Part shown: positions 9,884 to 44,745 of the stretch, in pieces
Position numbering within the stretch: the first letter of the stretch is position 1
Layout: each line of letters starts with the position of its first letter
IMG/VR virus record: IMGVR_UViG_3300046804_003294
Location: 3,280 to 67,279 of that record
From: a virus
DNA length: 64,000 bases
Direction: 5' to 3' (one strand)
Program-made: the position numbers and the translations under genes
The notes under the pieces: generated by a model
What the model was told of the DNA's origin: nothing
The model's database searches: none
Seen by the model: only the letters and a program-made list of their open reading frames with translations

Positions 9884-9884
9884 T

Positions 9885-20373: not shown

Positions 20374-23266
20374 TCTTTGGTTGACTGATCTTCAGTACGT
20401 TCACGCGCATCGGTGGTCCGTTGGTCTTGCGTAACAGGTCAAAGCGTTTGACGTATTCCACGCGGTAGCGAATCTCCAGTTCAGCCCTGAAGTCCAGATA
20501 CCCATAGCCCAGCGCTGCGCAGTGACCCTTCAACTGCTGCTCTTCAATGTAGAAGTCCACGTACCCCGGTGATACCTCGTGCTCCACCCGCCCCGCGACC
20601 TTGGTTCGCAGGGTGTTCTTCTCTACCAGCGTATCGTCGCCAAACCGTGCGCCGATGGGGTCAGCCGCCGAGAACACCACCAGATTGCCGTAGAAGGTCG
20701 TGGTGTAGTCAGCCAGCACATCTTCTGCCGTACGCACGGAGAGCTGCATCTGGCCACGCTGGTCAGTCACCATCTTCTTCAGTGACTTGATGATGCCCTC
20801 AACCGGCAGGTTGATGATGCCTGCGTAGTTGTCGCCCAGCAGGATGGCAGCGGTCACGTTGGCCGTGCAGCCTGCCAACCAGAAGCGCTCGTCGTCCACG
20901 ATGTCGAACTCTTTCTTCAGACGGGCGCTGACTTTAGCCAGCATATCAATGACAACCTCGCGGTTCTGCATGACCCACCGGACAAAAAGTGGACCCGCTA
21001 TTCCGTAATTCTCCTCGTACGTCTTGATCAGTGCCAGTTCGGCATCGTTCCAGCGCAGCTTGATGCGTGGGTTGTACTCCAGCATACGCCGCAGTTCGCC
21101 CTCAGATGAGTGCTTGCGAGCGCCGGTCATGTAGTCCAGCACGATGGTGTTGGAGGCCATCAAGCACTGGCCTTTCCAGAACGACGTGTTAATCCGTTCC
21201 TTGTTGGCACCGCCCTCCATCCTGTCCTTGCCGCCGCCCTCGCTGTAGCTGAAGACGAAGCTAGGGAACCACTCCAGCTTCTCCCGGTTCTTGGTCGTGA
21301 TTTCGTCCGAGATCAGCGGCTCGCTGTTTAAGAGGCCAGCACGCTGGAGCATGGCCACGTCAGAGGTCGATGCGTTGACCCGGTAGCGGTTAGGATGCCC
21401 CCAGATAGACGCCGCCATGCGCAGCGTGTACGACTTGCCGGTGCCGGACTCCCGATGGCCAAGGTGGAATGTCATGCCGTCAATGCCGGTGAACTCCATC
21501 AAGGCTGAACCGAACCCTGACATGGCGCAGGCCAGCAAGGGATGCAGCACGTCCACGCTGTTGTACGCCGAGGCAGATAGCAAGGCAAAGCGCTTTCTCC
21601 AACCGTCCAGCGTGCCGTCCCGGTCGGTGGCCTGATAGACGTTCTCCAGCCCCGGCATGGGTATTTTGCGCAGCTCTCCTGTGGGCGTGTAAATCGTGTT
21701 GTGGTGCACGAACGTGCCATCTTTCTGCCAGCCATAGTTCGCTGGCACCCCCACCGCCCCACGCTCCGCGCTGTAGTTCTCCACACACGCACGTACATAC
21801 GTGAAGAGATGCGCGTCATTCCCGGCACCGAACGCTGCGATGATGTTCTGCGCTGCCAGCGCCTTTGCCAGTTCATCCTTGCTGATAATAACCTTCTGCG
21901 GGAACAGGATGTCCACCGCACCTTCAGGACGCAGCGCGACCATGTGAACCGTATGATCGCCGCCCACCGGCTTTAAGATGTCCATGATGAACAAATCATA
22001 CGACAAGATCATCTTCATCTCTTTGGTCGTGTCCCCCGCTTCGGTCGGAATCTCGACTTCCCGGTAAATACCACCCTTACCACCGTACGCGAATCCCCGT
22101 GGAGGTGACGGCCTAACATACGTAATCTGCGCTGCCTCGGCAACGTCAACAGCGTTTTGATTAGCAGGCGTTGCCGTGAGTATCTTTTCCTCAGTCTCAA
22201 CTTTCACCTCGCGTCCAAGCGCCAAAGGGTTGGTGATTTTCCCAAAGTGTTTGCATCCTGCGCACACGCCGGGGTTCTCGCTGTCAAACTTTACGCAGGG
22301 GTAAGGTCCCTTAATTTCGCGCAGCTTTTGCGCCATCCTCTCTTTTGTGTACGGGTGTCGGTCTGTAAGAAAGTTTGCTGCCTTTACTCCGTCCTCGCAC
22401 TTGACGGCGATGGACAAGAGGCCGCGCCACAGAGGCTCCATGCCGTCTTCTTGCGCGTTGTCCAGATAGTATTTGAGTTGGCCGCAGCCTTCCCCTTTCG
22501 CAGTTTTTTGTAGGATTGATTTGAAAAACGTCGCTGAATTTTCAAACAGCTTCAGGGTCGTTGCGTTCTTGGGCAACGACGGTTTCTTTCCGGGCAGTGT
22601 GTCAAAGACCGGCACGGGGTCGGTCAGGTTTTCCTTGACCAGCGTGGCGAACTCGTTGAAGTCAAACGTCTCTGGCTTGGGTTCTTGCCAGACCACCACT
22701 GGCAGCGTGATGCCATACTTCCTGACGCGCTTCCAGTTGGTAGTACCCGGCACACGCAAGACCCGCGCTGCATCGGCAGGCACAGAGAAGTCAATACGCA
22801 ACCCTTCCTGCTTGCACAGGCGCTTGAAGTTCTCTGCTACCGGCTTCCACTGAGCGATGTCGATGTTGGCAGTGAGCGGCCAGTACACATGGTAGCCCCC
22901 GCCTGAATCAACAACGAGAGGCACGCCCAGCTTGTCTAGCCCGGTCTTGGTGAGAAAAGCATTGAAGGCAGCGATACCCAGCTCTTTATTAGCGTACGTC
23001 TTGGGTCCGTCTTCCGCGCAGTCTATGTCGAGAAAGAACGAACGCATGACTTTGGCGTTCTCCGCCGTGCGGTCACCTGAGTGCTTGTACGCTGCCAGTG
23101 CAAAGTACGCATCCTTCTGGTCGCGGTCGAACTGTGCAGCATTAGCCGCAAGCTCTTCTAGCGAACTGCCGAAGATGTGCTCTTTCTGGCGAGAGTCGAA
23201 TTCTGCGACGCAGTAATAATTTTCTGCGAACGGCAGTACTGCCGCCAGAAACTCTAGCGGTTCCAT
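20336..23266 (-). CDS. primase-helicase (AEP/RepB-like N-terminus, DUF927-like ATPase C-terminus)
   Basis: FLDID, SGGGYHVYW and RVLRVPGT primase motifs; Cys cluster; YGW; Walker A ESGTGKS; Walker B ISDE. Confidence 0.85.
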   Translation of the reverse strand: MEPLEFLAAVLPFAENYYCVAEFDSRQKEHIFGSSLEELAANAAQFDRDQKDAYFALAAYKHSGDRTAENAKVMRSFFLDIDCAEDGPKTYANKELGIAAFNAFLTKTGLDKLGVPLVVDSGGGYHVYWPLTANIDIAQWKPVAENFKRLCKQEGLRIDFSVPADAARVLRVPGTTNWKRVRKYGITLPVVVWQEPKPETFDFNEFATLVKENLTDPVPVFDTLPGKKPSLPKNATTLKLFENSATFFKSILQKTAKGEGCGQLKYYLDNAQEDGMEPLWRGLLSIAVKCEDGVKAANFLTDRHPYTKERMAQKLREIKGPYPCVKFDSENPGVCAGCKHFGKITNPLALGREVKVETEEKILTATPANQNAVDVAEAAQITYVRPSPPRGFAYGGKGGIYREVEIPTEAGDTTKEMKMILSYDLFIMDILKPVGGDHTVHMVALRPEGAVDILFPQKVIISKDELAKALAAQNIIAAFGAGNDAHLFTYVRACVENYSAERGAVGVPANYGWQKDGTFVHHNTIYTPTGELRKIPMPGLENVYQATDRDGTLDGWRKRFALLSASAYNSVDVLHPLLACAMSGFGSALMEFTGIDGMTFHLGHRESGTGKSYTLRMAASIWGHPNRYRVNASTSDVAMLQRAGLLNSEPLISDEITTKNREKLEWFPSFVFSYSEGGGKDRMEGGANKERINTSFWKGQCLMASNTIVLDYMTGARKHSSEGELRRMLEYNPRIKLRWNDAELALIKTYEENYGIAGPLFVRWVMQNREVVIDMLAKVSARLKKEFDIVDDERFWLAGCTANVTAAILLGDNYAGIINLPVEGIIKSLKKMVTDQRGQMQLSVRTAEDVLADYTTTFYGNLVVFSAADPIGARFGDDTLVEKNTLRTKVAGRVEHEVSPGYVDFYIEEQQLKGHCAALGYGYLDFRAELEIRYRVEYVKRFDLLRKTNGPPMRVNVLKISQPKNEFDALIKEADD

Positions 23267-23281
23267 GATTGCCCCCATAAG

Positions 23282-26988: not shown

Positions 26989-27660
26989 CTAATGCTTTGG
27001 ATTATGCTCACACGTTGTAACCGGGCACCAGCCACATAACGGCGTTGGGTTGGGGTTCCACACATCGTTGCTGTGACACGCCGACAATCTAGCTACGCGT
27101 TCCCGGTATCTCCACCACGCAGCTTCTTCCTCATCAATGGTCATTTCATGCTTGACCATCGTATTCTTGACCACAAACAGCAGCGCTGACTTCACGCGCT
27201 TGATGTGTGGGAAATGCTTGAACACCATCAGCGACATCAACACAAGCTGGTCACGGTCTGGATACTTGTCGTTGCCTGTCTTGTAGTCCACGACATACGC
27301 TGTGAAGTTATCGTCGTTAACGATAACCAAGTCAGCGATGCCTCGCACCCACACGTTCTCACTCTTGAAGCCGCAAGGGTTTAACTCTTCCGTCAACCCC
27401 ATCTCGTACTCAACAAACTTTCTCCCCGGCTTGGCAAGCAGCGAGTCCAGCACAGGCTTTACGTATTCGAACTGCGGCGGCATCTCCACGTTGTCGCGCA
27501 CGTACTTCTCTGCTGCTTCGTGCAACTGCGTGCCATACCGGATTTGTTCTGTGTCAGGGAACGGATACTTCTTCAACACCTTGACTTCGTAATAGCGTCT
27601 TGCACAACCTTCAAAATCTTTAAGCGCACTGTGCGACCACTTAACTTTTTCCATTTTCAC
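26989..27660 (-). CDS. PD-(D/E)XK exonuclease (RecB/Cas4-like fold)
   Basis: WSHS..K.FE.C, G...H, RGIADL, VVDYKTG, C-terminal C.WCP...C. Confidence 0.85.
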   Translation of the reverse strand: MKMEKVKWSHSALKDFEGCARRYYEVKVLKKYPFPDTEQIRYGTQLHEAAEKYVRDNVEMPPQFEYVKPVLDSLLAKPGRKFVEYEMGLTEELNPCGFKSENVWVRGIADLVIVNDDNFTAYVVDYKTGNDKYPDRDQLVLMSLMVFKHFPHIKRVKSALLFVVKNTMVKHEMTIDEEEAAWWRYRERVARLSACHSNDVWNPNPTPLCGWCPVTTCEHNPKH

Positions 27661-29624
27661 TTGGCTTCTCCATAGCGTACAGCAGCATCAATATCTGCTT
27701 TCAACGGTATCCCCGGCATGTAATCCGGGTCAGCGACCATCTGGTCGTACACCCACGGCATATCGTCTGAAACCGAAGTTTCAGGACACAGCACTACCAC
27801 CTCATCATGTACCGTCAGGACACACTGCAGACGCTCTTGTATGCGCAGCATACCGTCTGTCATTACGCAACGAGCCACTGCCTGAACGATGTTTTCAGTC
27901 AGCTTCCCGCCGTACAGCTTGATCTTGTCTTCGCCATAGACCCACTGTTTGCGGCCTTGCTCGTCAAGCTCAAACTGCAGATCAGGATAGCGCAGAGACA
28001 GGCCGCTTGGCAAGACCACCTCGCCCTTCCTGAAGATCAAACACTTGTGCCTGTACTCTTTGCCAAGATATAAACTATGCTCAATCAAGTTCTGGCACAT
28101 GTCCCAAAACATCTTAACCGGTTGCGCTGCGTCTCGATAACGATCAATAATCTCTTTGGCAACTACGCAGTGCACCAGCAACTCCTCTTCCGTGCAGGTG
28201 TGGGGTATCTCTGCCATCTTCTTCAAGTTCACATCCCACTCAACGAAGCGGTGTACTTTCTCCGCTGTGATACCCAGTGTGCGAGCGTCTTGCTTGGTGT
28301 AGCGCAAGGGCTTAGCGCCAAGGAACCCCGTCAGAAGCTGCGCTGCGAACGACGCCCAACCTAGCCCATAGCCTGCGCCAAGAAGCGCGGACTTGGCAGA
28401 CTGCCGCTCAACCGGATGGGAGTCCTTAGTCATGCCGGGGATGTTGAACATGCGCGCGCCGAAGAGCGAGTACGGGTCGTCACCTGATTGGAAGATCAGC
28501 ATCATGTCTTGGTAGTCAGCCAGATACGCAAGCACCCGCGGCTCGATCTGCGAGAGGTCACTGACGATCAGCTTGTATCCAGCAGGCGCAAGGATGGACT
28601 TGCGCAAGAACGACTCACGCTTCATGTTCTGCATGTTGATGCCACTGCCCCGGCTGGCAGACCAGCGCCCAGTATGCGCGCCGTAATAGTTCAGCGGGAC
28701 GGGGAGTGTTCCTCTTCTGGCGATATCAAGAAATCGCTGCGCTCGCGTACGCTCCAGTGTTGACTTGACTCGCAGTCGTGCCTCACACAAGAGTCGAATG
28801 TCTTCTCGCTCACTACTAAGTAAGGCTTGGAAGTGCGCGTCTTTTTTAGATAGTGCAAGCGTCTTTTTATTCGTTGTTTTGCTAACTTTGTATGGTACGT
28901 TGCATCCCAGAGACTCCAATAAACTTGCGAATTGAGGATTACTCGCAAGCGTTTTATCTTCCACTCCAAGGCGTGCAAGAAGCGCTTCACGTTGATCACG
29001 CTCTTCATTGACTGCCTCCTCTAACATCACAGGGTCTAACAACAACTTAGGCTCAGTGAACATCCTGAGCGTTAAGTCAATGAGCTGTAGCTCTTTGCGT
29101 GGGTAGCCTTTAACTAGCCTCCTAAACACTTCCACGCAGAGAAACACATCGTGCTTGCAGTACTCAGCAAGCTCTTCTTCTACTTCTTCGGTAAGGTGGG
29201 AAAGTCCATCTGTGGAGTGTACGGCTCGTCCCTTCGGGGGAAGGCCATAGCTCTCAGCCAGTACAGCAAGGCTATTACCAGATTCAACCCCACGTAAAGC
29301 GCGAGCCATAGAAAGGCTATCAAATATGAAAGCAGGACGTACACCGTAGTGCCATGAAAGTATCGCCACATCGAACTGAGCGTTATGAGCAAGAATGGCA
29401 GTCCGACCCCAATCAATAGTTCCCAGAAAAGTGGGGATGTCTTCGTGAGACACCCACGTAGTTGTTTCATAATCAGTTCCTAACCAGTAATAACAAAGCC
29501 CAAACGCCTTGAAGCGCTCGTCACGGATGTATTCTTCCGTGGTCAGCTTCGATAGCGTGTACTCCTTGCTTGACCAACGTGTCTCGAAGTCAATGCAGAT
29601 GATGTTGTCGTACGGCTTCTTCAA
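27657..29624 (-). CDS. family A DNA polymerase with 3'-5' exonuclease
   Basis: DFET, AHNAQFD, YCKHD (exo I-III); DLSQIE, RQSAKSALLGAGYG, VHDE (pol A-C). Confidence 0.93.
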   Translation of the reverse strand: MKKPYDNIICIDFETRWSSKEYTLSKLTTEEYIRDERFKAFGLCYYWLGTDYETTTWVSHEDIPTFLGTIDWGRTAILAHNAQFDVAILSWHYGVRPAFIFDSLSMARALRGVESGNSLAVLAESYGLPPKGRAVHSTDGLSHLTEEVEEELAEYCKHDVFLCVEVFRRLVKGYPRKELQLIDLTLRMFTEPKLLLDPVMLEEAVNEERDQREALLARLGVEDKTLASNPQFASLLESLGCNVPYKVSKTTNKKTLALSKKDAHFQALLSSEREDIRLLCEARLRVKSTLERTRAQRFLDIARRGTLPVPLNYYGAHTGRWSASRGSGINMQNMKRESFLRKSILAPAGYKLIVSDLSQIEPRVLAYLADYQDMMLIFQSGDDPYSLFGARMFNIPGMTKDSHPVERQSAKSALLGAGYGLGWASFAAQLLTGFLGAKPLRYTKQDARTLGITAEKVHRFVEWDVNLKKMAEIPHTCTEEELLVHCVVAKEIIDRYRDAAQPVKMFWDMCQNLIEHSLYLGKEYRHKCLIFRKGEVVLPSGLSLRYPDLQFELDEQGRKQWVYGEDKIKLYGGKLTENIVQAVARCVMTDGMLRIQERLQCVLTVHDEVVVLCPETSVSDDMPWVYDQMVADPDYMPGIPLKADIDAAVRYGEAK

Positions 29625-29887
29625 TTCAGCACCCGCTTGGGACCGCCTTCGGACTCAACGATCATCTCGTAAGCGCTGGTCAGCATCATGGACAGTATCG
29701 TCATGTTGGCGTTGAAGGTGTACGTCTGCATCCTGCCATCCGCGTCATCCATCACAAGAAAGACAGCGTGCTTGCTCTTTGTAGTCTCAAGCAACGCTTT
29801 GCGAAAAGCGTTCACGGCTTCTTCAATGAAGCGCTCTTTGTCGTGCCCTGTGCTTTCCGTAATAACTTTTTGTAGTTCTTCGTTCAT
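29621..29887 (-). CDS. hypothetical protein
   Basis: ATGA-coupled on both sides. Confidence 0.65.
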   Translation of the reverse strand: MNEELQKVITESTGHDKERFIEEAVNAFRKALLETTKSKHAVFLVMDDADGRMQTYTFNANMTILSMMLTSAYEMIVESEGGPKRVLN

Positions 29888-30156
29888 AAGGCGTCCAGTT
29901 CATATAGGTTGTCTTCGTTGATTACATAGGTCATACCACCGGACTCACGAATCTTCTGCATCTCCGCTTCCTGCAACGGCGTGGGTTTGTTCTTGCCTGC
30001 CTTGCACTCGATGCCGACGAACGTGCCTCTGTAACAACAGATTATGTCCGGTACTCCTGATCTGCCGTAGCCTCCTGTCTGCGGCGTAAAGTAATAAATC
30101 TTTTTCTCTTTGAGTATCTTGTATACCTTTGCTTTAACTTTGGCTTCCGGGGTCAT
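29884..30156 (-). CDS. VRR-NUC nuclease (putative resolvase)
   Basis: TPEAKVK, GVPDII, GIECKAGKNKPTPLQ. Confidence 0.85.
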   Translation of the reverse strand: MTPEAKVKAKVYKILKEKKIYYFTPQTGGYGRSGVPDIICCYRGTFVGIECKAGKNKPTPLQEAEMQKIRESGGMTYVINEDNLYELDAL

Positions 30157-31081
30157 AGTGCTCCAGCAGTTGATCTGCTTCCTTGAAAATGGTTTCGAGG
30201 GAGGTCATCTGTGGTTGGTAGCCAAGCTCTGCTGCTTTATAGTTTTTTGAATAATAGTTTGGTTTCACGCCGGTCGGAGCTATGATGATGCGCTCCGTGA
30301 TAGCGTACCGCAAGTTATACCGCGCGCTCATCGACTCAAGCAAGTCGTGCTTGCTTATTGGCGCTTTTGTGTACGCGTCCACCGCGCCGTTGAACCCCGG
30401 CGCATTTAGAATACAGAAGATCAGGCGGTGCAGGTCTTCGGGTCCGATGTAGTCGCGCATCAGCGGTGTGTCATCAATCGCATAGGGCGTGCCGTTTAAC
30501 CCCTGCAAACGAATGACTGCCCTTAACATCTCCATGATCATGTAGCGTAGCTCAAGCGACTGCGTGTGGCTGAAGTAATTAAACACACGCAAGTCCACTA
30601 TGTGTTTCTGAAACAGCGTGCGGTGTTTGATCTCAGCCAGCCACTTCGCCAGCCCATAGTAGTGCTGCTTCTCAATGCGCTGCGGATACGTGACAGGTGT
30701 GTTGGGTTCTGCTGGCTTATCAAACGTGCCGCCGTACGCTGCCCCGCTGGAGATAAAGATGTACTTGGTATCAGGGCGGCGCATAAACTGCAGCGCTAAC
30801 TCATCGTACGTTCTAGTCAGATCAAACATGGCGTCCTGCATGGTCGCCAGCTTCGCCGGGTCGCCTATACCCACGAAGTTAATCACCGCGTCAACGTAGA
30901 ACTGCCTGCCACGCAGCACATGGTAGTGCATGGACGTGAAGCTCTTGTATCCAATGTCGAACATGAACTGCTGCACGCTATCAGGGTTGCGCGAGAACAG
31001 CAAGAGCGTGTGCTCATCGTTACACTGAACGATAAAGTCTTTTGCGATTTGGCTGGTAGCTCCAAGGATAGCTATCTTCAT
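30134..31081 (-). CDS. NAD-dependent epimerase/dehydratase/reductase (extended SDR)
   Basis: ILGATSQIA Rossmann loop, FISSGAAYG, YGLAK (YxxxK), RVFNYF, RDYI. Confidence 0.85.
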   Translation of the reverse strand: MKIAILGATSQIAKDFIVQCNDEHTLLLFSRNPDSVQQFMFDIGYKSFTSMHYHVLRGRQFYVDAVINFVGIGDPAKLATMQDAMFDLTRTYDELALQFMRRPDTKYIFISSGAAYGGTFDKPAEPNTPVTYPQRIEKQHYYGLAKWLAEIKHRTLFQKHIVDLRVFNYFSHTQSLELRYMIMEMLRAVIRLQGLNGTPYAIDDTPLMRDYIGPEDLHRLIFCILNAPGFNGAVDAYTKAPISKHDLLESMSARYNLRYAITERIIIAPTGVKPNYYSKNYKAAELGYQPQMTSLETIFKEADQLLEHYDPGSQS

Positions 31082-31809
31082 TTGTTCACCATCTCAGCGG
31101 CTAGTTCTTCGTCAGACAGGAAAGGCACCATGTCATGCAGGGGCGCTTGCTTGCCGTCTTTAAAGCCCTGCGACGGCAGGATTTGTTGTGTACGCAAACA
31201 CAGAACGCCCACGATATACGGGCTTGGCGCTGAAAATATAGTGGGCAAATGCTTTTTCATAACAGCAACGCACCACGTATCAACGAACGGAATACCAAAC
31301 GCTTTTGCAATATTTGCAAAGTCCGGGAACCATACGCCAGTATCGCTGTCCACGCCATGCACGTTGCCATAGAACCTTGATTGTGTGTTCTTAATACTGA
31401 GATACCCGCGGTTGTTCAGTATGATGACCTTGATCGGTAGTTTATGTTCTTTAATTACAGCCAGCTCCTGCATGTTGGACATGAAGCTGCCATCACCAAC
31501 GATACAGATGACATTCTTAGCGCCTGCTTTAGCCACGCCGATGGCAGCAGGTAGTGCCCACCCCATATCGCCCTGTGACTGACTCATTACCAGCCGTTGT
31601 GTGCCTTTGAACTTGTACGCCTGCGGCACCATGTAAAACGCGCTGCCAGCGTCGCACATGATTACAGCATCGTCTGCGCTGTGCTGATGAATGGCTTCAA
31701 GGACTGTGTAAATGTTCAGGCCATGCGTGTCGTCCATATACTCAGGCTGCATCACAGGCCACTTGGCCTTCCAGTGCTGGCACTTTGCTACCCATTCTTC
31801 CCGCGTCAT
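31078..31809 (-). CDS. ThDP-dependent enzyme, C-terminal (PP) subunit; YerE/AHAS-like
   Basis: GDMGWALPAAIG, GDGSFMSNMQEL...ILNNRGY ThDP motif; own GGAG RBS and ATGA overlap. Confidence 0.85.
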   Translation of the reverse strand: MTREEWVAKCQHWKAKWPVMQPEYMDDTHGLNIYTVLEAIHQHSADDAVIMCDAGSAFYMVPQAYKFKGTQRLVMSQSQGDMGWALPAAIGVAKAGAKNVICIVGDGSFMSNMQELAVIKEHKLPIKVIILNNRGYLSIKNTQSRFYGNVHGVDSDTGVWFPDFANIAKAFGIPFVDTWCVAVMKKHLPTIFSAPSPYIVGVLCLRTQQILPSQGFKDGKQAPLHDMVPFLSDEELAAEMVNK

Positions 31810-32813
31810 AGCATGGCTCCAAAGAAATTCTGAACGCTTGTATGTATCTTCCAATCCACCGGGATGATGTCTTTGTTCAGTTCATCCTGTTCGATGTCCA
31901 CGTATATCTTGTAGGCCGTGGGGTTGAACTGCTTGGGGTCGTAGCCGATGACAGGCGCGCCCAATGACGTGCCCAAGAACAACAGCAGGTCAGCGTTCTG
32001 CATGGCGAAGTTACCCGCGCGGTTACCACGCACACCGGGTGTGCCGATGTTTAGTGGGTGATCGTACGGCGCGTAGTCCTGTGCGCCATAAGTGGTGACG
32101 AAAGGTATCTGGTACTTTTCTACAAAATCCCTGAACGCAACCACGCGGTTCGCTTGCCGTATACCCACACCAGCGACAATCAAAGGCCGGTCGCTTGCAT
32201 AAATCTTTTTCCACACATCAGCCGCGTCAACAGGTGCAGCGGCAAACTCTTTGTAGTTAAGGTTTCGGAGTTCCGGCATCTGTGCGGTCTGGACGTTAGC
32301 AGGTATGTCCACCCACACGGGGCCGGGACGTCCGGTTGTGGCAAAAAACACAGCAGCTTTTAAGGCATCCTCAACAACTTCAGGGCTGCTTACAAAATAT
32401 GAATCCTTAGTGATGGACTCCATAGTGCTAACTATATTGTGCTCTTGTGCGCCGTAGTGCCTGATGCGTATGTTCCGTTCTTTGTTAATATATTGCGCAG
32501 TGTTGTCCAGCCTCACGTTGCCCGATAGAAAAAGAACAGGAACACCGTCCTGATAACCATTAAGGACACTGGTACTGCAGTTAGTCCCAGCACAGCCAGT
32601 TGTAGGGTTAACAACAGCCAGTTGACCTGTGTACTTTGCTTCTCCGAGTGCTGCATGGCCTGCTCCTTGCTCGTGGTGATAACAAATGTATTCAATGCCG
32701 GGGTGCTTGATGAAGCCATCATTCAGCCCCGCTGCACCCCCGCCCATCAACCCATGCACACGCCGCACGCCTATGCTGTGCAGGTACTCAGCTATCCAAT
32801 CAGCTACTCTCAT
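31806..32813 (-). CDS. ThDP-dependent enzyme, N-terminal (PYR plus middle) subunit; YerE/AHAS-like
   Basis: MRVADWIA, HHEQGAGHAA catalytic Glu, GRPGPVWVDIP, GNRAGNFAMQNADLLL. Confidence 0.87.
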   Translation of the reverse strand: MRVADWIAEYLHSIGVRRVHGLMGGGAAGLNDGFIKHPGIEYICYHHEQGAGHAALGEAKYTGQLAVVNPTTGCAGTNCSTSVLNGYQDGVPVLFLSGNVRLDNTAQYINKERNIRIRHYGAQEHNIVSTMESITKDSYFVSSPEVVEDALKAAVFFATTGRPGPVWVDIPANVQTAQMPELRNLNYKEFAAAPVDAADVWKKIYASDRPLIVAGVGIRQANRVVAFRDFVEKYQIPFVTTYGAQDYAPYDHPLNIGTPGVRGNRAGNFAMQNADLLLFLGTSLGAPVIGYDPKQFNPTAYKIYVDIEQDELNKDIIPVDWKIHTSVQNFFGAML

Positions 32814-34048
32814 CAGAAGTGCCCCATAAATTCGTCAATCTTCTCCACCATGTACGACAGCATCTCCGCAGTCAGCGCAGGCTGCACGCCAACCCACAGC
32901 AGGTTCTTCATGATGTCGTCCGAGATACGCAGGTCACCCACTACACGATAGTTCCTGCCCTGCATGTACGGCTGCTTGGTCACGTTGCCAGCGAACAGCA
33001 AACGTGTGCCGATGTTGTTGTCGTTCAGGTAGCGCACAAACGTATCCCGATCAAAGTTAACATCAGTCAACCAGATGGGGTAGCCAAACCATGAAGGGTT
33101 GGCGTCAGGGTAGACCGTGGGCGAGACAAGGTTTAATGCGTGCTCGCTTAGCTCGTGGTTCAGGTACTCAAAGTTGCGCCTGCGTGCTGCAACAAAGTTC
33201 TCCACCTGCTCAAGCTGTGCCACGCCACACGCTGCCTGCATCTCGGTGATCTTCAGGTTGTAGCCGAGATGACTGAAGATGTACTTGTGGTCATACCCGC
33301 AGGGAAGCTCGCCCATCTGCCAATCAAAGCGCTTGCCACACGTGTTGTCCTTGCCCGGTGAGCACCAGCAGTCACGCCCCCAATCCCTGAACGACTCCAC
33401 CGCACGAACGAGAGACGTGTCGTTGATGATGACCGCCCCGCCCTCGCCCATCGTGATGTGGTGCGCCGGGAAGAAAGATAGCGTAGCCAGATGGCCGAAG
33501 GTGCCAACCTTCTGGTTTCTCCACGTCGCGCCCAGTGCGTCGCAGCAGTCCTCGATCAGCCACAGGTCATGCCGCTCGGCAAACGGTACAACTTCCTCAA
33601 GATTGAAGGGGTTGCCCAGTGTGTGCGCAATCATGATGGCGCGGGTCTTGGGCGAGATGGCATCCTCCAGCGTTCTGGTGTCGATGTTCAACGTGCTGTT
33701 GACATCCACAAACACAGGCACACAGCCGTTCTGGATGATGGGATTGATGGTCGTGGGGAAGCCGCAGGCCACAGTGATGACCTCATCACCGGGCTTGATG
33801 GCACGCGACCCCAGAGTGGGAGAAGTTAGCGCAGTAAACGCCAGCAGGTTGGCAGAGCTACCTGAGTTCGTGGTGCGCACCATAGGCGGCACACCAAAAC
33901 CATGACCTAGATATTCACCCAGCCTGCTCTCGAACTGCGCGTTGTAAGCGCCAGCAGTAAGCCAGCCAACGTCAACAGCGTTGTGCATCAGCTCTTTCTC
34001 ACGCTCACCGATGACCTGCCCGGAGGCAGGAATGAATGTGTTTCTCAT
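32813..34048 (-). CDS. rfbH: CDP-4-keto-6-deoxy-D-glucose 3-dehydratase (E1, RfbH/DdhC/AscC)
   Basis: DegT fold (NSGSSANL); SFFPAHHITMGEGG with His in place of the Schiff-base Lys; EDCCDALG and RDCWC..GKDNTCGKRF Fe-S cysteines; YDHKY.FSHLGYNLK. Confidence 0.9.
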   Translation of the reverse strand: MRNTFIPASGQVIGEREKELMHNAVDVGWLTAGAYNAQFESRLGEYLGHGFGVPPMVRTTNSGSSANLLAFTALTSPTLGSRAIKPGDEVITVACGFPTTINPIIQNGCVPVFVDVNSTLNIDTRTLEDAISPKTRAIMIAHTLGNPFNLEEVVPFAERHDLWLIEDCCDALGATWRNQKVGTFGHLATLSFFPAHHITMGEGGAVIINDTSLVRAVESFRDWGRDCWCSPGKDNTCGKRFDWQMGELPCGYDHKYIFSHLGYNLKITEMQAACGVAQLEQVENFVAARRRNFEYLNHELSEHALNLVSPTVYPDANPSWFGYPIWLTDVNFDRDTFVRYLNDNNIGTRLLFAGNVTKQPYMQGRNYRVVGDLRISDDIMKNLLWVGVQPALTAEMLSYMVEKIDEFMGHF

Positions 34049-34839
34049 ACAGGCGTCCGTTCCGGTAAGGCTGCGGGTTGTTCTTGCTTGACATACACAT
34101 CAGGCGGCGGGGTCAACACACCGTCAAAGATGTGCGTACCGACGTGCCCAAGCTGCGCCCACGGTGCAGCCCATACCTGACCACCGCACTTCTCACGCCA
34201 CATCTTGCAGAAGTAATAGTCCTCAGACAGCAGACGCTCGCCCATCGGCTCGATGCTGGTTGCGAAGTACTCGACGATGCGGTCTTGTCCTATGGTGCCG
34301 CCCAGATCGTTGGTGTCGTTGATGTAGCTTGGCAGCTTGTCTTTCAGTTGCTCAAAGACCTCACGCTTGATCAGCATGAACCCAGTGCCGCCGTTCCATA
34401 TCTCAACAGGCTCGTTGAGATTGACTTGTACTTGATCAGCATAACCAACAAGGTTGACCACGAACGAACCAGAGAACATGCGCAGCTTCTCTGCTGGCAC
34501 ACCAGCTATCGCAGCCTTTCGCACCTGCTCCCAGTTGATTTCCTTCTTGGGATAGATGCCACAGATGATGGGCTTGTCAGCGTGAATCATGCGTAAGATG
34601 TCTTGCGGATTAAACCTGATGTCCGCGTCGATGAACATCATGTGCGTGAAGTCAGTACGCATAAAACCATGCGCCAGTGCATTGCGCGCACGCTGAATGA
34701 GCGACTCGTTAAAGAGGTACGACACAGCGGTGTTGATGCCGTTCTGCCCCATCAGCGCTTGCAGTTGCAGCATGGACTGACTGAAGTAGCCATAGTTCTG
34801 GCCTCCGTACATTGGCGTGGCGATGAATAGCTTGGTCAT
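34045..34839 (-). CDS. GT-A fold glycosyltransferase-like protein
   Basis: IATPMYGG, RARN, FIDAD (DxD), GTGFMLI, SEDYYFC, LGHVG. Confidence 0.75.
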   Translation of the reverse strand: MTKLFIATPMYGGQNYGYFSQSMLQLQALMGQNGINTAVSYLFNESLIQRARNALAHGFMRTDFTHMMFIDADIRFNPQDILRMIHADKPIICGIYPKKEINWEQVRKAAIAGVPAEKLRMFSGSFVVNLVGYADQVQVNLNEPVEIWNGGTGFMLIKREVFEQLKDKLPSYINDTNDLGGTIGQDRIVEYFATSIEPMGERLLSEDYYFCKMWREKCGGQVWAAPWAQLGHVGTHIFDGVLTPPPDVYVKQEQPAALPERTPV

Positions 34840-37484: not shown

Positions 37485-37801
37485 GTGTTCTTCTCCTTCA
37501 GCTTGGCTTCAACCATTGCTGCAACATATCCTCGTTCTGACGGTTCGCAGGAGAACAATATTTCGAGCACTTCATCTTTACTTAGACCCTGCCATTCGCG
37601 CGCCAACGTGACCTCTACCCCCTCGTCTACACGATGGTCGTAACACGCGCACCCGCGCTCCCAACATGCTTTCTCTACGATCATTGTTTCCACCCGCATG
37701 GCAAACGCTTCCAGATGCGCCAGCGCTGACTCATGCCACGGCTTGCCGCTGTCGTCTCCCCATACTTCTTTCGCTATTCTGATGACGTCTTCTTTTTTCA
37801 T
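37481..37801 (-). CDS. small hypothetical protein (WQGLS...LKEKNT type)
   Basis: Start at ATGA overlap 37798-37801. Confidence 0.7.
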   Translation of the reverse strand: MKKEDVIRIAKEVWGDDSGKPWHESALAHLEAFAMRVETMIVEKACWERGCACYDHRVDEGVEVTLAREWQGLSKDEVLEILFSCEPSERGYVAAMVEAKLKEKNT

Positions 37802-38085
37802 GTCGCCCCCCATGTTCTGTGCTTCTCGGCAACCCATTCCATGCCGTCGTATTCTTCTATCTGCCACTGGACACCATCTGGTATTTCGACAATGCCTAAG
37901 CTTGCGAACTGTCCACCTGCTGCATCACCCATTTCTTCTACTACTTGAATAAGCACTGGGTCATTACGCTCCACGCCACGACAGTTCCACCCCTCACCCT
38001 CACTGCCTTTAAGTTCTGCGTACCGTTTCGTAGCTTCATCAGACAAACTGAATCCGCCGTAGTCTTTGTTTATAACTATTTTCAT
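37798..38085 (-). CDS. conserved phage hypothetical protein
   Basis: KIVIN..YGGFSLS...R.DP.L..VVEE...IVEIP...W.IEEYDG.E. Confidence 0.75.
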   Translation of the reverse strand: MKIVINKDYGGFSLSDEATKRYAELKGSEGEGWNCRGVERNDPVLIQVVEEMGDAAGGQFASLGIVEIPDGVQWQIEEYDGMEWVAEKHRTWGAT

Positions 38086-39104
38086 ATCAGTGCATACCTA
38101 TAGACAGGGTTGTATGTGTTGTGATTAAAGTTGTCGTTGCTGCGTGTCCAATGCGCAGCGTTGACGAGGTTGGCTGAAGGACATGACACGCTCTCAAGGC
38201 AGTCCACGATAGCGAGATAGTTCTTCAGGATTGGCAAGCAGGAGACTTTCTCTCCGTACTTGTGGTGATAGCCCCTGTGTTGCATGGGCGTGATGTTGAT
38301 AGCTGTTGTGCCCCTGCTGAGTTTGCGCGCCAGTTCCCACTGGTCAGACAACACAACCGTGCGTGAGCAACGCCGAGCCAGTGCCTCAATGTCGTGCAGA
38401 TAGTGGGCGTATGGTTGCACTGGTGCTTCCGCATACGCTTTGTCGCCGCCTCGTATGAACACCAGACCAGAGCGTGACACGTTAAACAGGTCGCCCTTGT
38501 AATAGCGTCTGATGTCCTTCTCGATCTCCTTGTACTTGGCTTCCTTGAACTGATAGAACTGGCGCAGGTACACCTCGCCGCCCTTGAAAATAAAGTCACG
38601 CATGGACTCGAAGTGCACGGCTTGCGCGTTGTTGGGTAGCTTGTCAAGCAGGTTAAAGCCGAACGTATTGCGGAAGATGTCACCGAACGCTTCCTCGTAG
38701 CCCCACCAGTTGTATGTGTTGTCAATCACCAGCGCCTTGTTCGACAAGCGCGCAACGTATGACGCCACGATGATGTTCTCGATGATGGAGAAAAAGCCAG
38801 AGTCGCGTGGCTGGTAGACCATCGTGCCAGTGGGTATGAACGAAGGCAATAGGTCGTTGTTGTCGTTGAATCCGAGGTAAAAGAAGTATTGCTCGTCGGA
38901 GAGGTTGTAGAACGCGCAAGCGCGCTCCATGCCGAGACACGCAACGATCTCTTGCGCGTAGAAAATATTGGGCGGGAGAGTTTGAGGCAGGCGGGTCTGA
39001 AGGTCAGCCCATGAGAGCTGACCCCAGAAGAATTGACGAGCAGCGATAGCTGCCATGCGAGCAGCATCGCCGTCAGGTGCAGAGTATTTGTGGAATTGAA
39101 TCAT
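38082..39104 (-). CDS. putative GT-B fucosyltransferase-like protein (GT23/NodZ/FUT8-like)
   Basis: GFFS N-terminal loop, FIRGGDK..EA (cf. HVRRxDK..EA), VVLSD, SANL. Confidence 0.55.
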   Translation of the reverse strand: MIQFHKYSAPDGDAARMAAIAARQFFWGQLSWADLQTRLPQTLPPNIFYAQEIVACLGMERACAFYNLSDEQYFFYLGFNDNNDLLPSFIPTGTMVYQPRDSGFFSIIENIIVASYVARLSNKALVIDNTYNWWGYEEAFGDIFRNTFGFNLLDKLPNNAQAVHFESMRDFIFKGGEVYLRQFYQFKEAKYKEIEKDIRRYYKGDLFNVSRSGLVFIRGGDKAYAEAPVQPYAHYLHDIEALARRCSRTVVLSDQWELARKLSRGTTAINITPMQHRGYHHKYGEKVSCLPILKNYLAIVDCLESVSCPSANLVNAAHWTRSNDNFNHNTYNPVYRYALI

Positions 39105-39269: not shown

Positions 39270-39448
39270 ATACGAAGCATCAGGCCGAAGAACTTCGACA
39301 GTAACGATTGATGCGCTTGCCGATGCTCAAGCAACAAGCTCTGCGCGAAGCGCTCTTCTGGCGTGTGATCTTCTTCCTTGAACTTCGGGATGTAGAACCG
39401 TCCGATCTTGGGCGGTTCTTCCTTGATGAATTTTCCGTCTTTAAGCAT
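39266..39448 (-). CDS. hypothetical protein
   Basis: TAATG coupling with upstream gene. Confidence 0.6.
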   Translation of the reverse strand: MLKDGKFIKEEPPKIGRFYIPKFKEEDHTPEERFAQSLLLEHRQAHQSLLSKFFGLMLRI

Positions 39449-39756
39449 TAGATACCCCACTTGTCTTTATCGAAGTCCTCGTCCTCGATGTAGTACATGG
39501 ACACGCGGTCGCGCCGCTTGGCTTGAATGTCCTCGGCCTTACGGCGAGCCGCAACCTTTTCCGCTTTCGCTTTTGCTGCCTCAAGAGGCGTGTAGATGGG
39601 TTTGACAGGCACGGCAGGCTTCTTTGCCTCCAGCACCGACTCAAGTGTCGAGAACCGCACACCGCAGGTGAAGCACTTGCGACGACGCAGAACGCCGCCG
39701 CTTTCATGCTTCATTGTGGTTGTCACATAAGTCTGCCCACCGCACTTGCATTTCAT
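39448..39756 (-). CDS. NrdR-like zinc-ribbon protein
   Basis: MKCKCG...V...RRRKCFTCGVRFSTLE; no ATP-cone. Confidence 0.75.
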   Translation of the reverse strand: MKCKCGGQTYVTTTMKHESGGVLRRRKCFTCGVRFSTLESVLEAKKPAVPVKPIYTPLEAAKAKAEKVAARRKAEDIQAKRRDRVSMYYIEDEDFDKDKWGI

Positions 39757-41877: not shown

Positions 41878-42876
41878 TTAGTTAGCGATATCCTTGTCCA
41901 GATTGCCGCCGTCAAACAGATCGAACAACCACGTTGCTGCCTCTTCAGGATCAGAGTCAACGAGCACACGCATCTCGCCCTCTTCCTTCTCGCCATAGCT
42001 CTCGATCAGCAGGTACTCTGCCTTGTCCGGTGCAGCAACAACCCAGTCAACAAGCTGGTGCATACCGCGGCGATAGCAGTTGTGTGCAGCCTTGACTACC
42101 TTGTCGATGTTGAACTTCTTGGGCTTGACGTTGACGTCATACACCTCGTACGCATCGTCATAGTCACCGTACGCTGCACCGCCTGTGTCGTACTGCGATG
42201 ATGCAGAGAGTGACTTGCTTGAGTGCTTGGTCGGATACATCGTATAGCCAGTGCCATAGCTGTCGCCATAGTAGTCATAGCGACTGTTGTAGCCAGCGTA
42301 TGCAGCGCGGCGACCATGACCATGCTTGTGTGCAGACCATGCGTATGTGTTGGACAGCCACGCGCCTTGATGCTCGACGCCTGCATCGTAGTTGAGCACG
42401 ACAACCTCACCGCTACTGTGCAGGAAAGCGAACTTGTTAGTTGCGCCGATCATCTTCTCGATGTACCGCTGATAGTCAGGGTCAAGGATGATGTTCGGGT
42501 TGTGCAGCATGGCAGGCTTCAAGATGTACTCGATGAAGTGCCATGTGTCAGAACGCTTGGGGTCGATGGGGTTACCCATTGACAGGATGCCGTTGTGCGC
42601 CATCCACAGATCGTCAGTGACTTTGTATGGATGGCAGTTGTCCATGTCGATGTCGCCGTGAGTTTTCATGCGGTAGTGAATGATGCACTCACGACCCTTC
42701 AGTGTGTCACGGTACAGCGTGTTGATCTCGGCAGGTTTGCCAAGCGTCTTGATCACAACGATGCTGCCGTTCTCGACGTACATAGCACCGAAGCCGTCAG
42801 AGTTGTAGGAATAGAAGTCGTTCAACAGAGCGTCATTGAACGCGACGTTAGCTGGATGATGAATGAGTATGCACAT
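41878..42876 (-). CDS. class II (Ntn) glutamine amidotransferase
   Basis: N-terminal Cys2 (MCIL), NSDGFG, IHYRMKTHG, NCHPY, AHNG, SDT. Confidence 0.88.
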   Translation of the reverse strand: MCILIHHPANVAFNDALLNDFYSYNSDGFGAMYVENGSIVVIKTLGKPAEINTLYRDTLKGRECIIHYRMKTHGDIDMDNCHPYKVTDDLWMAHNGILSMGNPIDPKRSDTWHFIEYILKPAMLHNPNIILDPDYQRYIEKMIGATNKFAFLHSSGEVVVLNYDAGVEHQGAWLSNTYAWSAHKHGHGRRAAYAGYNSRYDYYGDSYGTGYTMYPTKHSSKSLSASSQYDTGGAAYGDYDDAYEVYDVNVKPKKFNIDKVVKAAHNCYRRGMHQLVDWVVAAPDKAEYLLIESYGEKEEGEMRVLVDSDPEEAATWLFDLFDGGNLDKDIAN

Positions 42877-42914
42877 AGTTAGTTCTCCTTAGTGTGGTTG
42901 GAAATAAAACTCGG

Positions 42915-44717: not shown

Positions 44718-44745
44718 GATTGCCTCCATGTGGTTGGTTGATGGA

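Follow-up and report, generated by a model that had tools for sequence, protein, structure and literature searches.

A phage operon predicted to carry out late reactions of acyl-branched 3,6-dideoxyhexose synthesis with a two-polypeptide ThDP carboligase

We describe a four-gene module from an uncultured aquatic phage (virus record of 67,279 bp) that probably carries out the later reactions in the synthesis of an acyl-branched 3,6-dideoxyhexose resembling yersiniose, erwiniose or caryophyllose; judging from homology and genomic context, we put the probability of this reading at roughly 70%. The module occupies positions 30134-34048 on the minus strand of the window, that is, the whole stretch of 64,000 nucleotides analysed, and consists of overlapping genes for an E1/RfbH-type 3-dehydratase, a ThDP enzyme made of two polypeptides and an extended SDR (Table 1). 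A preliminary description had placed the four genes at this position, correctly so. The module would be a phage version of a known branched-sugar pathway, differing from it in the two-polypeptide carboligase and in being encoded by a phage.

Table 1. Genes of the sugar module and of the coupled run upstream of it (positions in the window).
Feature	Position	Strand	Basis
Conserved protein, unknown family, 340 aa	38082..39104	-	Head of coupled run; no Pfam/NCBIfam/PHROG match
GT10-like (fucosyltransferase-type) glycosyltransferase, 312 aa	36325..37263	-	Pfam Glyco_transf_10
GT-A type glycosyltransferase-like protein, 254 aa	35564..36328	-	Paralogue of 34045-34839; sub-cut-off Glycos_transf_2
GT2 glycosyltransferase, 239 aa	34848..35567	-	Pfam Glycos_transf_2
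Anp1-like nucleotide-diphospho-sugar transferase, 264 aa	34045..34839	-	Sub-threshold Pfam Anp1; ESM Atlas neighbours
E1/RfbH-type PMP- and [2Fe-2S]-dependent NDP-4-keto-6-deoxyhexose 3-dehydratase, 411 aa	32813..34048	-	NF011936, 3bcx
ThDP carboligase large subunit (PYR + middle domain), 335 aa	31806..32813	-	TPP_enzyme_N, TPP_enzyme_M
ThDP carboligase small subunit (PP domain), 243 aa	31078..31809	-	TPP_enzyme_C; ATG of ATGA overlap
Extended SDR, 315 aa, putative NADPH-dependent ketoreductase for branched NDP-sugar (YerF analogue)	30134..31081	-	Conserved residues, AF2 fold, context

The module is part of a phage operon

Four glycosyltransferase-like genes and one conserved gene of unknown family lie upstream of the module. 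From the last of these, the Anp1-like gene, through RfbH and the two ThDP genes to the SDR gene, successive genes overlap by 4, 1, 4 and 4 nt, and the island as a whole sits inside one overlapping operon that continues into nuclease, PolA, exonuclease and SNF2 genes. The module had been described as running straight into VRR-NUC and PolA. The run-on to PolA stands and the VRR-NUC label is not supported: the Pfam scan of the window ORFs returned no VRR-NUC match, the ORF after the SDR gene (29884-30156) gave only a sub-threshold Hjc match (20.4 bits, cut-off 21.1), and an 88-aa ORF (29621-29887) intervenes between that ORF and PolA.

Host DNA under phage names does occur: in a collection of 50,697 phage records, the 58.7% RfbH match, on a record of 2,570 bp, and all ThDP matches look like such DNA. 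A host or chimeric origin of the island itself is nevertheless extremely improbable, as it belongs to a single operon with the nuclease, PolA, exonuclease and SNF2 genes, its GC content (0.51-0.55) is uniform and within the range of the window, and the viral ThDP contigs are 57-95% identical to one another, whereas the closest cellular homologues reach only 35-41%. The order RfbH, ThDP N, ThDP C, SDR, nuclease, PolA, SNF2 is moreover kept in three other IMG/VR records (L001, L009 and L035). A chimeric assembly is excluded by this shared order in independent contigs, and the search of viral databases for the same gene set, proposed in the preliminary description, did find it.

The first gene encodes an E1/RfbH-type 3-dehydratase

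The first enzyme of the module matches DegT in Pfam (E 8.7e-92) and scores 634.5 bits with the NCBIfam RfbH equivalog NF011936 (cut-off 423). Among solved structures it comes closest to Yersinia E1 (3bcx, 528 bits), whereas ColD reaches 170 bits. The usual Lys position reads SFFPAHHITMGEGG, that is, His for Lys, and an alignment with 3bcx shows four conserved cysteines, C169, C227, C229 and C237 (C-X57-C-X1-C-X7-C). According to passages of PMC8987622, E1 and SpnQ are told apart from ColD and aminotransferases by the four cysteines and the catalytic His. Equivalog score, 3bcx match and four-cysteine motif together bear out the earlier naming of the gene as an RfbH/E1 with His for Lys and Fe-S cysteines.

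Phage-borne genes of the E1 family are already present in GenBank, with about 34% identity to the RfbH of the window. Cultured cyanophages such as Synechococcus phage S-H68 resemble the window phage in carrying an RfbH-like gene (annotated as CDP-4-dehydro-6-deoxy-D-glucose 3-dehydratase); unlike in the window phage, this family's ThDP carboligase was not found among the 50,697 phage records, where the best ThDP matches were bacterial AHAS at most 35% identical.

The ThDP carboligase is split into two subunits

The N and middle ThDP domains are found in one ORF (Pfam TPP_enzyme_N, 2e-27; TPP_enzyme_M, 6e-29) and the PP domain in the next (TPP_enzyme_C, E 1.4e-32). The junction reads ...GCC ATG CTA TGA CGC..., so that the ATG at 31809 and the stop codon ending the first ORF share an ATGA; we therefore start the second subunit there and not at the TTG at 31854 given by the program's ORF list. 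The catalytic-Glu motif HHEQ is conserved in the large subunit and GDG-X24-NN is intact in the small one. The same 4-nt stop/start overlap occurs in 62 of 78 related viral loci (61 ATGA, 1 TTGA), and the split viral forms group in a single clade (support 99) whose sister group is the fused viral forms (100). The split is real, and the earlier reading of two subunits is confirmed by the division of domains between the ORFs and by the overlap common to so many loci. So far the two-piece enzyme has been seen almost exclusively in viral contigs.

Among solved structures, JanthE (8rph) is the best match for both halves, with 143.7 bits for the N half (AHAS I, 138; PpYerE 5ahk, 117.4) and 129.6 bits for the C half (best AHAS, 86.3; PpYerE 5ahk, 59.8). 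In the N half JanthE is ahead of AHAS I only narrowly, and with either half PpYerE scores less than AHAS of E. coli or plants. JanthE is described as YerE-like in the accessible sections of PMC12188165, which also report an unusual CDG motif; that of the phage enzyme is the standard GDG. The whole family stands apart from E. coli IlvI, IlvB, Gcl and PoxB with support of 100 (FastTree, 117 rows) and 99 (IQ-TREE quick, 46 rows), these four E. coli proteins being the only references from outside the family and the other rows context-labelled homologues. A phylogeny against YerE, AHAS, YerF and RfbH had been suggested earlier; its AHAS part is answered by this clade apart from IlvB and IlvI, within that set of E. 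coli references and context-labelled homologues. Probable membership of the YerE-type family is supported by the JanthE match, the genomic context and the outgroups.

Acetolactate synthase (IlvB, IlvI, IlvG with small subunits) shares superfamily, domain order, catalytic Glu and GDG-NN motif with the phage enzyme; the top NCBIfam names are acetolactate synthase large subunits, and JGI annotates relatives accordingly. A role as acetolactate synthase, with the genes carried for branched-chain amino acid metabolism, is however highly improbable. With these very models the enzyme scores 171.8 and 122.5 bits (equivalog cut-offs 970 and 976), the RFDDR and QHQMW motifs are absent, Pfam scans found no regulatory-subunit domain, both trees place it in a separate clade, and its genes are translationally coupled to E1. 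Scores, missing motifs, missing regulatory subunit and separate clade rule against an ordinary AHAS, and the lines of evidence taken together support a YerE-type branching pathway as the likely role.

The neighbourhoods of bacterial homologues point the same way. An RfbH of at least 45% identity lies within 10 kb of 46 out of 72 full-length bacterial ThDP homologues; at most 8 kb from the ThDP gene, families resembling glucose-1-phosphate cytidylyltransferase, HpcH/HpaI aldolase and 4-hydroxy-2-oxovalerate aldolase occur in 37, 19 and 12 of 74 bacterial loci, respectively, among which no E3-like family stood out. These neighbourhoods match published acyl-branched-sugar clusters (PMC9306805): as in the clusters of ErwE (Pectobacterium), MMAR_2332 (M. 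marinum) and MyGE (M. gastri), the bacterial relatives have RfbH, cytidylyltransferase, aldolase and reductase beside the ThDP gene.

The SDR follows the carboligase in gene order

The SDR has a weak Pfam Epimerase match (E 1e-7) and invariant residues G7, R31, S111/S112, Y142 and K146, with no sequence match in the PDB or in the 50,697 phage records. Its AF2 model (pLDDT 90) has a predicted NDP-sugar SDR fold; the top Foldseek match of the model is 8v4h, a C. jejuni NADP-dependent reductase of CDP-glucitol synthesis (TM 0.81), and NDP-sugar epimerases and reductases come next. Across 43 assessable metagenome loci of the SDR family, RfbH is present in 38, and RfbH plus a ThDP carboligase precede the SDR in 36: a YerE-like ThDP gene lies at most 3.5 kb upstream in 25, and a split transketolase takes its place in 11, in contigs such as L178 exactly between the RfbH and SDR homologues. 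In five further loci the ThDP enzyme is elsewhere in the DNA examined. The earlier assignment of the gene as the SDR of the module held up.

From the SDR data alone, the protein could be a C4 reductase. The pathway would then yield an unbranched 3,6-dideoxyhexose such as abequose, paratose or ascarylose, with the ThDP enzyme serving some other purpose. The classical route, as given in passages of PMC8987622, runs from E1 to an SDR 4-reductase, and the modelled fold resembles NDP-sugar 4-reductases and epimerases equally well as side-chain reductases. We consider this quite unlikely: the ThDP genes stand between E1 and SDR with overlaps of 1-4 nt, and the order RfbH-ThDP-SDR is kept with two non-homologous ThDP types in mid-position, a pattern that makes little sense if the SDR does not act on what the carboligase has made. 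We accordingly regard the SDR as a putative side-chain ketoreductase of the branching pathway.

Two-component ThDP branch installers of the split transketolase/PDH-E1-like kind lie by deoxysugar genes, and those of Gram-positive antibiotic pathways have been contrasted with single-chain YerE (PMC4753412). Like them, the phage would use a two-subunit enzyme to install a C4 acyl branch; its subunits, in contrast, are halves of an AHAS/YerE-type protein (TPP_enzyme_N + M; TPP_enzyme_C) and not transketolase domains, and would therefore represent an independent way of being two-component.

Proposed pathway and its substrates

The closest known system is the yersiniose A pathway of Yersinia pseudotuberculosis, with E1/E3, YerE and YerF (Chen et al. 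1998, via PMC9306805). Both have an E1-type 3-dehydratase, then an AHAS-like three-domain ThDP carboligase, then an NAD(P)H reductase, and the predicted acceptor is in both an NDP-4-keto-3,6-dideoxyhexose; they differ in that the Yersinia carboligase is one polypeptide, and in that RfbF, RfbG and E3 are absent from the phage. The preliminary description had noted this absence for the window, and it extends to the whole 67,279-bp record, across which PF00483, TIGR02622 and PF00175 gave no match. With no cytidylyltransferase, 4,6-dehydratase or E3-type reductase in the 67-kb phage, the host must supply them.

We infer all steps from homology and context. The host would provide an NDP-4-keto-6-deoxyhexose, most likely CDP-4-keto-6-deoxy-D-glucose, and electrons would come from a host E3-type or general ferredoxin/flavodoxin reductase. 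The phage E1/RfbH would take off the C3 hydroxyl to give NDP-4-keto-3,6-dideoxyhexose; the two ThDP subunits, as a heteromer equivalent to single-chain YerE, would decarboxylate a 2-oxo acid and put the acyl anion on the C4 ketone; and the SDR would reduce the side-chain ketone to a hydroxyalkyl branch. As donor, pyruvate would be the simplest assumption, since Pfam scans found no donor-forming aldolase or transaminase in the window phage, which in this respect differs from the ErwE, MMAR_2332 and MyGE clusters with their functionalised donors. Finally, four or five soluble glycosyltransferase-like proteins may draw on the branched and further sugar nucleotides to assemble a glycan, whether on the virion, the host surface or DNA. 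The diversion of a host NDP-4-keto-6-deoxysugar to a branched sugar, as proposed at the outset, is supported, since all gene assignments held, the context is of the YerE type and RfbH-ThDP-SDR recurs.

Pyruvate as donor (a C2 branch, yersiniose proper), CDP as nucleotide and the targets of the transferases are details that we infer. The same enzymes might instead act on a dTDP or GDP sugar or take a donor longer than pyruvate, and the product would then depart from yersiniose in its details. A 4,6-dehydratase encoded next to the genes of the larger viral group gives its top score with the dTDP-glucose type (TIGR01181, 295 bits; CDP type, 70.8), and in that group a class I/II aminotransferase gene lies between the RfbH-like and ThDP genes. 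The fused viral forms are neighboured by panB-like and AroB-like genes. ErwE does not accept pyruvate, MyGE takes C3 to C8 donors (PMC9306805), and JanthE accepts many donors according to passages of PMC12188165. Against this, the window E1 aligns over residues 4-409 with the CDP-specific Yersinia enzyme, the phage is without a donor-forming enzyme, and the top structural match of the SDR model binds a CDP-sugar, so that we hold another substrate to be unlikely.

Glycosyltransferase-like genes upstream

The GT10-like protein matches Glyco_transf_10 (E 6.1e-18, 65.5 bits, cut-off 23.9) and the GT2 protein Glycos_transf_2 (E 1.3e-6, 28.9 bits, cut-off 23.3). The 254-aa protein stays below the latter cut-off (21.4 bits); it carries DxD motifs and groups with the 264-aa Anp1-like protein in family F12. 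Neither these two Pfam-supported proteins nor the 254-aa protein has a hydrophobic segment (the maximum 19-residue Kyte-Doolittle mean of the GT10-like protein is 1.21). The Anp1 match of the 264-aa protein is sub-threshold (20.7 bits, cut-off 28.8), and its Atlas neighbours, at 0.98-0.99, are viral clusters labelled 'putative Anp1' or nucleotide-diphospho-sugar transferase.

The 340-aa protein may be a fifth glycosyltransferase. The ESM Atlas offers a lead only, in viral clusters of which one has FUT8_N_cat on 12% of its members, and the AF2 model (pLDDT 57.6) is too poor for a structure search. Homologues occur in L001, L004, L009 and L035, and in L004 the gene directly follows that of the ThDP C subunit.

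Genome and gene order of the phage

The window covers 64,000 of the 67,279 bases of the IMG/VR record, for which CheckV gives a completeness of 100%. From its gene content, including the large terminase, portal, head, primase/helicase and exonuclease genes listed in the table together with a family-A DNA polymerase and an SNF2 helicase, the record is classified as a tailed phage. No tRNA genes were found in it. The closest cultured terminases (45-52% identity) are those of phages of Pelagibacter, Synechococcus and Planktothrix and of lake phages, which makes an aquatic bacterium the probable host, as opposed to Salmonella or Yersinia. On the minus strand, the genes from 39104 to 25172 are tightly packed: all boundaries but one are stop/start overlaps or gaps of at most 9 nt, and most are overlaps of 1-4 nt. 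Only at 37798-37867 do two genes overlap by as much as 70 nt, and the gene start there is uncertain. The interval of the preliminary description (30134-34048) contains four genes of this run.

Predicted features of the phage genome, in window coordinates
Feature	Position	Strand	Match or location
2OG-Fe(II) oxygenase	388-996	+	PF13759, 74.8 bits; virion/tail gene block
GNAT acetyltransferase	8274-8723	+	PF00583, 33.6 bits; virion/tail gene block
2,870-aa ORF	11568-20180	+	structural block
Primase/helicase	20336-23278		
Exonuclease	26989-27660		
Extended SDR	30134-31081	-	
Second ThDP subunit	start at 31809	-	TPP_enzyme_C
First ThDP subunit	31806-32813	-	TPP_enzyme_N, TPP_enzyme_M
E1/RfbH-type 3-dehydratase	32813-34048	-	NF011936
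p340, conserved 340-aa protein	38082-39104	-	head of the coupled run
102-aa ORF	39448-39756	-	NrdR-like zinc ribbon, sub-threshold (25.3 bits, cut-off 27.2)
Amidoligase pair	41878-44729	-	early region
Large terminase	48052-49590		
Portal	49600-52086		
Head protein	54851-55759		

A 3-dehydratase of the E1/RfbH type

The first gene of the module scores 634.5 bits on the NCBIfam equivalog model for RfbH, whose cut-off is 423. Among solved structures, the phage protein matches Yersinia E1 (3bcx) at 528 bits and ColD at 170 bits. The alignment to 3bcx places a His at the position of the aminotransferase Lys, the stretch AHHITMGEGG agrees with E1 residue by residue, and C169, C227, C229 and C237 are conserved. 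The spacing of these cysteines, C-X57-C-X1-C-X7-C, is identical to that reportedly found for the [2Fe-2S] cysteines of E1. A review (PMC8987622) sets E1 and SpnQ apart from ColD by the four-cysteine [2Fe-2S] site together with the catalytic His (H220 of E1), and names E3 as the electron source of E1 and general ferredoxin or flavodoxin reductase pairs as that of SpnQ. On these features the protein is an E1/RfbH-type 3-dehydratase, predicted to carry out the 3-deoxygenation of CDP-4-keto-6-deoxyglucose, and the preliminary description, which had recognized an RfbH/E1 protein with His for Lys and Fe-S cysteines, is confirmed on each of these points.

RfbH-like genes are also present in cultured cyanophages, at about 34% identity to the E1 of the window. 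Separately, a number of phage-named records, short or very long (OR851175.1, OR845443.1, AFYI01000003.1 and others), contain rfbH or ilv genes of bacterial type and resemble host DNA; such host-like records under phage names can mislead hunts for phage-borne metabolic genes.

The ThDP enzyme as a probable YerE-like carboligase

The PYR, middle and PP domains of the ThDP enzyme are complete over two polypeptides, and the catalytic Glu (HHEQ) and the GDG-X24-NN motif are kept. The top solved match of both halves is 8rph (143.7 bits for the N half, 129.6 bits for the C half), which is JanthE, described as a YerE-like enzyme coupling 2-oxo acids to ketones (PMC12188165). The scores against solved enzymes point both ways: for the N half, JanthE is ahead of AHAS I by a small margin (143.7 vs 138 bits), and AHAS, at 138 (N) and 86.3 bits (C), scores higher than PpYerE (5ahk; 117.4 and 59.8 bits). 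A catalytic subunit of AHAS itself is unlikely on three grounds. The best scores on AHAS equivalog models are 171.8 bits for the N half and 122.5 bits for the C half, where those models have cut-offs of 970 and 976, and both halves are also below 509 bits, the lowest cut-off among the NCBIfam AHAS equivalogs listed (NF006187). Where E. coli AHAS has RFDDR and QHQMW/F, motifs whose residues have known roles in AHAS, the phage enzyme reads SLGAPV and SAFYMV. Finally, no AHAS regulatory small subunit or ACT domain was found in Pfam scans of 69 window ORFs.

Phylogenetic analysis joined 113 viral and bacterial homologues in one clade apart from IlvI, IlvB, Gcl and PoxB of E. coli, the only four non-family references in the trees, with a support of 100 (FastTree, 117 rows) and 99 (IQ-TREE quick LG+G4, 46 rows hand-picked to span all clades of the 117). 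For the tree input, 32 of 149 rows were dropped because a retained row was 90% identical or more; also left out were the truncated or broken viral genes of L069, L071, L072, L074, L076 and L077 and eight bacterial loci in which no ORF of 560 aa or longer was called. The YerE-type assignment made earlier stands in so far as the enzyme lies apart from E. coli AHAS and groups with homologues from deoxysugar clusters, a placement read against four E. coli proteins only.

YerE-like carboligases are single-chain flavoproteins, whereas the phage enzyme consists of two chains, cut between the middle and PP domains. Because of this cut we file it as a split variant, which should work like YerE, outside the canonical single-chain members. 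The ThDP pair should, by prediction, couple a 2-oxo acid to an NDP-4-keto-3,6-dideoxyhexose.

A two-subunit form shared by many uncultured phages

Pfam places the N and middle domains of the enzyme in one ORF and the C domain in the next, as the preliminary description of two subunits had it; the junction between the two subunits reads ATGCTATGACG. We took the ATG of the ATGA overlap as the start of the second subunit and set aside the upstream TTG proposed by automatic ORF calling. A scan of IMG/VR for the ThDP enzyme gave 78 loci. In 62 of them the enzyme is divided between two ORFs that share this 4-nt overlap (61 ATGA, 1 TTGA), with N subunits 57-95% identical to that of the window. Another 14 loci have a single ORF, mostly of 590-597 aa and 36-52% identical. 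Of the remaining two, one ends ahead of the second gene and the other is broken (L072:8001-10654, on a 61-kb viral contig): its ThDP gene is fragmented, with a gap of 710 nt separating the matched ORFs, which means that the copy has decayed or that the assembly is at fault. According to the alignment, the split point in the window and the 62 viral loci falls in the variable stretch that links the middle domain to the PP domain. A programmed frameshift or a sequencing error as the source of the split was rejected, the overlap start codon being kept in 62 loci at identities down to 57%.

When the N subunit was used to query a collection of 5.8 billion proteins, the best 120 matches were all 265-343 aa long; clustered at 90% identity, the subunit falls into at least 120 groups of proteins. 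The closest cellular homologues of the ThDP enzyme are 35-41% identical and single-chain, with two exceptions encoded in two ORFs, one on a 2.4-kb MAG fragment (L079) and one in a Bacteroidales MAG (L092). Split forms make up one clade in both trees (support 99), with one group of fused viral forms as sister (support 100), and a single origin would suffice to account for the split given this one clade. Carriers of the split enzyme are genomes of 61-67 kb like that of the window as well as large phages, among which are complete records measuring 202, 222 and 337 kb; terminal repeats are present in two of these. Of the 34 carrier records searched, 12 gave a terminase, as did six of the seven that are at least 90% complete. 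With at least 62 viral loci and at least 120 clusters at 90% identity, the split enzyme is a common trait of uncultured aquatic phages and no one-off.

The SDR follows ThDP carboligases of two kinds

Sequence searches of the PDB gave no match to the SDR. Its catalytic Ser, Tyr and Lys residues are invariant (S111/S112, Y142 and K146, the last two in YxxxK), and its AF2 model (pLDDT 90) has the Rossmann fold of NDP-sugar-binding SDRs. The top Foldseek match is a Campylobacter NADP-dependent CDP-sugar reductase (8v4h, TM 0.81), and the next ones are NDP-sugar epimerases, reductases and dehydratases. The protein is thus a divergent extended SDR.

The SDR gene of the window overlaps the preceding ThDP subunit gene by 4 nt. 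A metagenome scan with the SDR alignment gave 80 loci, 43 of them assessable with at least 2 kb of upstream sequence. A ThDP carboligase precedes the SDR in 36 of the 43: a YerE-like gene lies at most 3.5 kb upstream in 25, and a split transketolase occupies exactly the position of the YerE-like gene in 11. Five further loci have a ThDP enzyme elsewhere in the sequenced DNA and two have none; RfbH is present in 38 of the 43. The SDR is also encoded directly after the ThDP gene in three bacterial loci (L080, L090 and L130).

The metagenome locus L178 (2927-6933) and 10 more have RfbH, the split transketolase and an SDR of this family in succession. Pfam divides the transketolase of L178 into Transketolase_N and Transket_pyr plus Transketolase_C, and a second, unrelated two-subunit ThDP enzyme thus fills the YerE slot in loci of this type. 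Since the SDR family follows two unrelated kinds of ThDP carboligase, we argue that it acts on the carboligase product, as YerF does.

Missing steps and related clusters

No match to a nucleotidyltransferase (PF00483), a CDP-glucose 4,6-dehydratase (TIGR02622) or the NAD_binding_1 domain of E3-type reductases (PF00175) was found in the whole phage genome, so that the absence of RfbF, RfbG and E3 noted earlier holds genome-wide. Pfam scans of 69 window ORFs likewise found no aldolase or donor-forming transaminase. With the genes for precursor, electron supply and donor absent from the phage, the predicted pathway must draw its 4-keto-6-deoxy sugar nucleotide, electrons and 2-oxo acid from the host. 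Pyruvate is the simplest donor candidate, as the phage has no donor-forming enzyme.

In bacteria, an RfbH with an identity of 45% or more lies no further than 10 kb from 46 of 72 full-length ThDP homologues, a lower bound given that many bacterial contigs are short. Families encoded within 8 kb of the ThDP gene in 74 bacterial loci are RfbH (46 loci), glucose-1-phosphate cytidylyltransferase-like (37), HpcH/HpaI aldolase-like (19), NeuB-like (16), AroB-like (15) and 4-hydroxy-2-oxovalerate aldolase-like (12). These loci share their layout with the clusters for erwiniose, caryophyllose and related sugars described by Steitz et al. (PMC9306805), in which the 2-oxo acid donor comes from an aldolase or a transaminase, its addition to CDP-4-keto-3,6-dideoxyglucose is the work of a YerE-like enzyme, and the branch is completed by a reductase.

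Viral contigs of jumbo-phage size (L011-L059, e.g., L023:5522-10438, and L060-L078) have the cluster in larger versions. The RfbH-like gene of this larger viral group keeps the His, has a longer Cys motif (CYC...C-X2-C) and scores 437-472 bits, just over the cut-off; a class I/II aminotransferase often lies between it and the ThDP genes. The group also carries a short SDR, a dTDP-glucose-4,6-dehydratase-like gene, an FkbM methyltransferase and an NAD-synthase-like gene. Viral contigs with the fused enzyme have panB-like and AroB-like neighbours. Judging from these gene sets, phages of the larger group and those with the fused form probably differ in their donors and may differ in the nucleotide as well.

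Novelty of the proposed pathway

The module had no megablast match in the phage collection. Among 50,697 GenBank phage records, from which close neighbours of the window's genome may have been excluded, the ThDP subunit had no match above 35% identity, and the SDR had no match. The ThDP matches are to AHAS of bacteria, in records with the look of host DNA. A literature search, which left most subscription journals outside, found no paper on a branched-sugar (yersiniose/YerE/RfbH) pathway in a phage, consistent with the claim that it is undescribed. Acyl-branched 3,6-dideoxyhexoses are rare, and the papers cited here (PMC9306805, PMC4753412) report them from bacterial O-antigens, mycobacterial lipooligosaccharides and some antibiotics only. 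What is known here is the logic of the YerE chemistry; what is new is that a phage carries it, that it depends on the host and that its enzyme is heteromeric. If the pathway is phage-borne, phages take over the closing steps, which define the structure, of an exotic sugar pathway and leave the precursors to the host. It would also provide a natural heteromeric form of the ketone-accepting ThDP carboligases, which are sought for making tertiary alcohols by asymmetric synthesis (PMC12188165).

Possible targets of the sugar

Upstream of the module lie four glycosyltransferase-like genes, namely one GT10-like, one GT2 and two Anp1-like paralogues. The conserved protein p340 has a FUT8-like lead only (AF2 pLDDT 57.6 from a 5-sequence alignment), and its glycosyltransferase nature is accordingly given as a lead. 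In L004, an IMG/VR relative, a p340 homologue (9730-10722) directly follows the ThDP small subunit, in the place of the SDR, of which no homologue was found in the sequenced DNA of that locus.

None of the nine proteins (p340, the four glycosyltransferase-like proteins, E1/RfbH, both ThDP subunits and the SDR) has a hydrophobic segment, and we reject on this ground the assembly of a host-membrane glycan by membrane enzymes of the phage itself. Glycosylation of virion proteins, for which mycobacteriophages and giant viruses provide precedents, fits the soluble transferases and is a tentative reading. We hold a remodelling of the host surface glycan just as tentatively, because such sugars are known only from O-antigens and lipooligosaccharides and because the transferase content varies between relatives, as it does in O-antigen loci. 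DNA ranks lowest as a target and seems improbable: the module genes do lie in the replication block, but no thymidylate-synthase/hydroxymethylase homologue (PF00303) was found, and Pfam scans of 69 window ORFs, about 20 of which have no family, gave no methyltransferase, TET/JBP or TGT family. Another target altogether is unlikely.

Taken more broadly, we put at roughly 0.3 the probability that the two-subunit YerE-type carboligase is specific to viruses and the mark of a glycan system widespread among phages, in which soluble transferases put the phage's own acyl-branched dideoxy sugars on phage material (virion proteins or DNA) and not on host LPS. The carriers of this proposed system are 60-kb podovirus-like phages and complete jumbo phages of 200-340 kb. 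If true, a chemically exotic coat would hide the particle or the genome from host defences or receptor-binding competitors.

Other genes of the phage

The amidoligase pair consists of a 604-aa Amidoligase_2 protein, also named 'amidoligase enzyme' by PHROG, and an adjoining 332-aa protein with a match to class-II glutamine amidotransferases (GATase_4). A joint Pfam scan of 49 ORFs gave one match to LPD38 (large polyvalent protein domain) and two to the SU10 adaptor family, and the structural block includes one very long ORF (see table). The 102-aa ORF with the NrdR-like match lies a short way upstream of the glycosylation genes and is a candidate for a small regulator. The 2OG-Fe(II) oxygenase and the GNAT acetyltransferase could serve in the modification of structural proteins.
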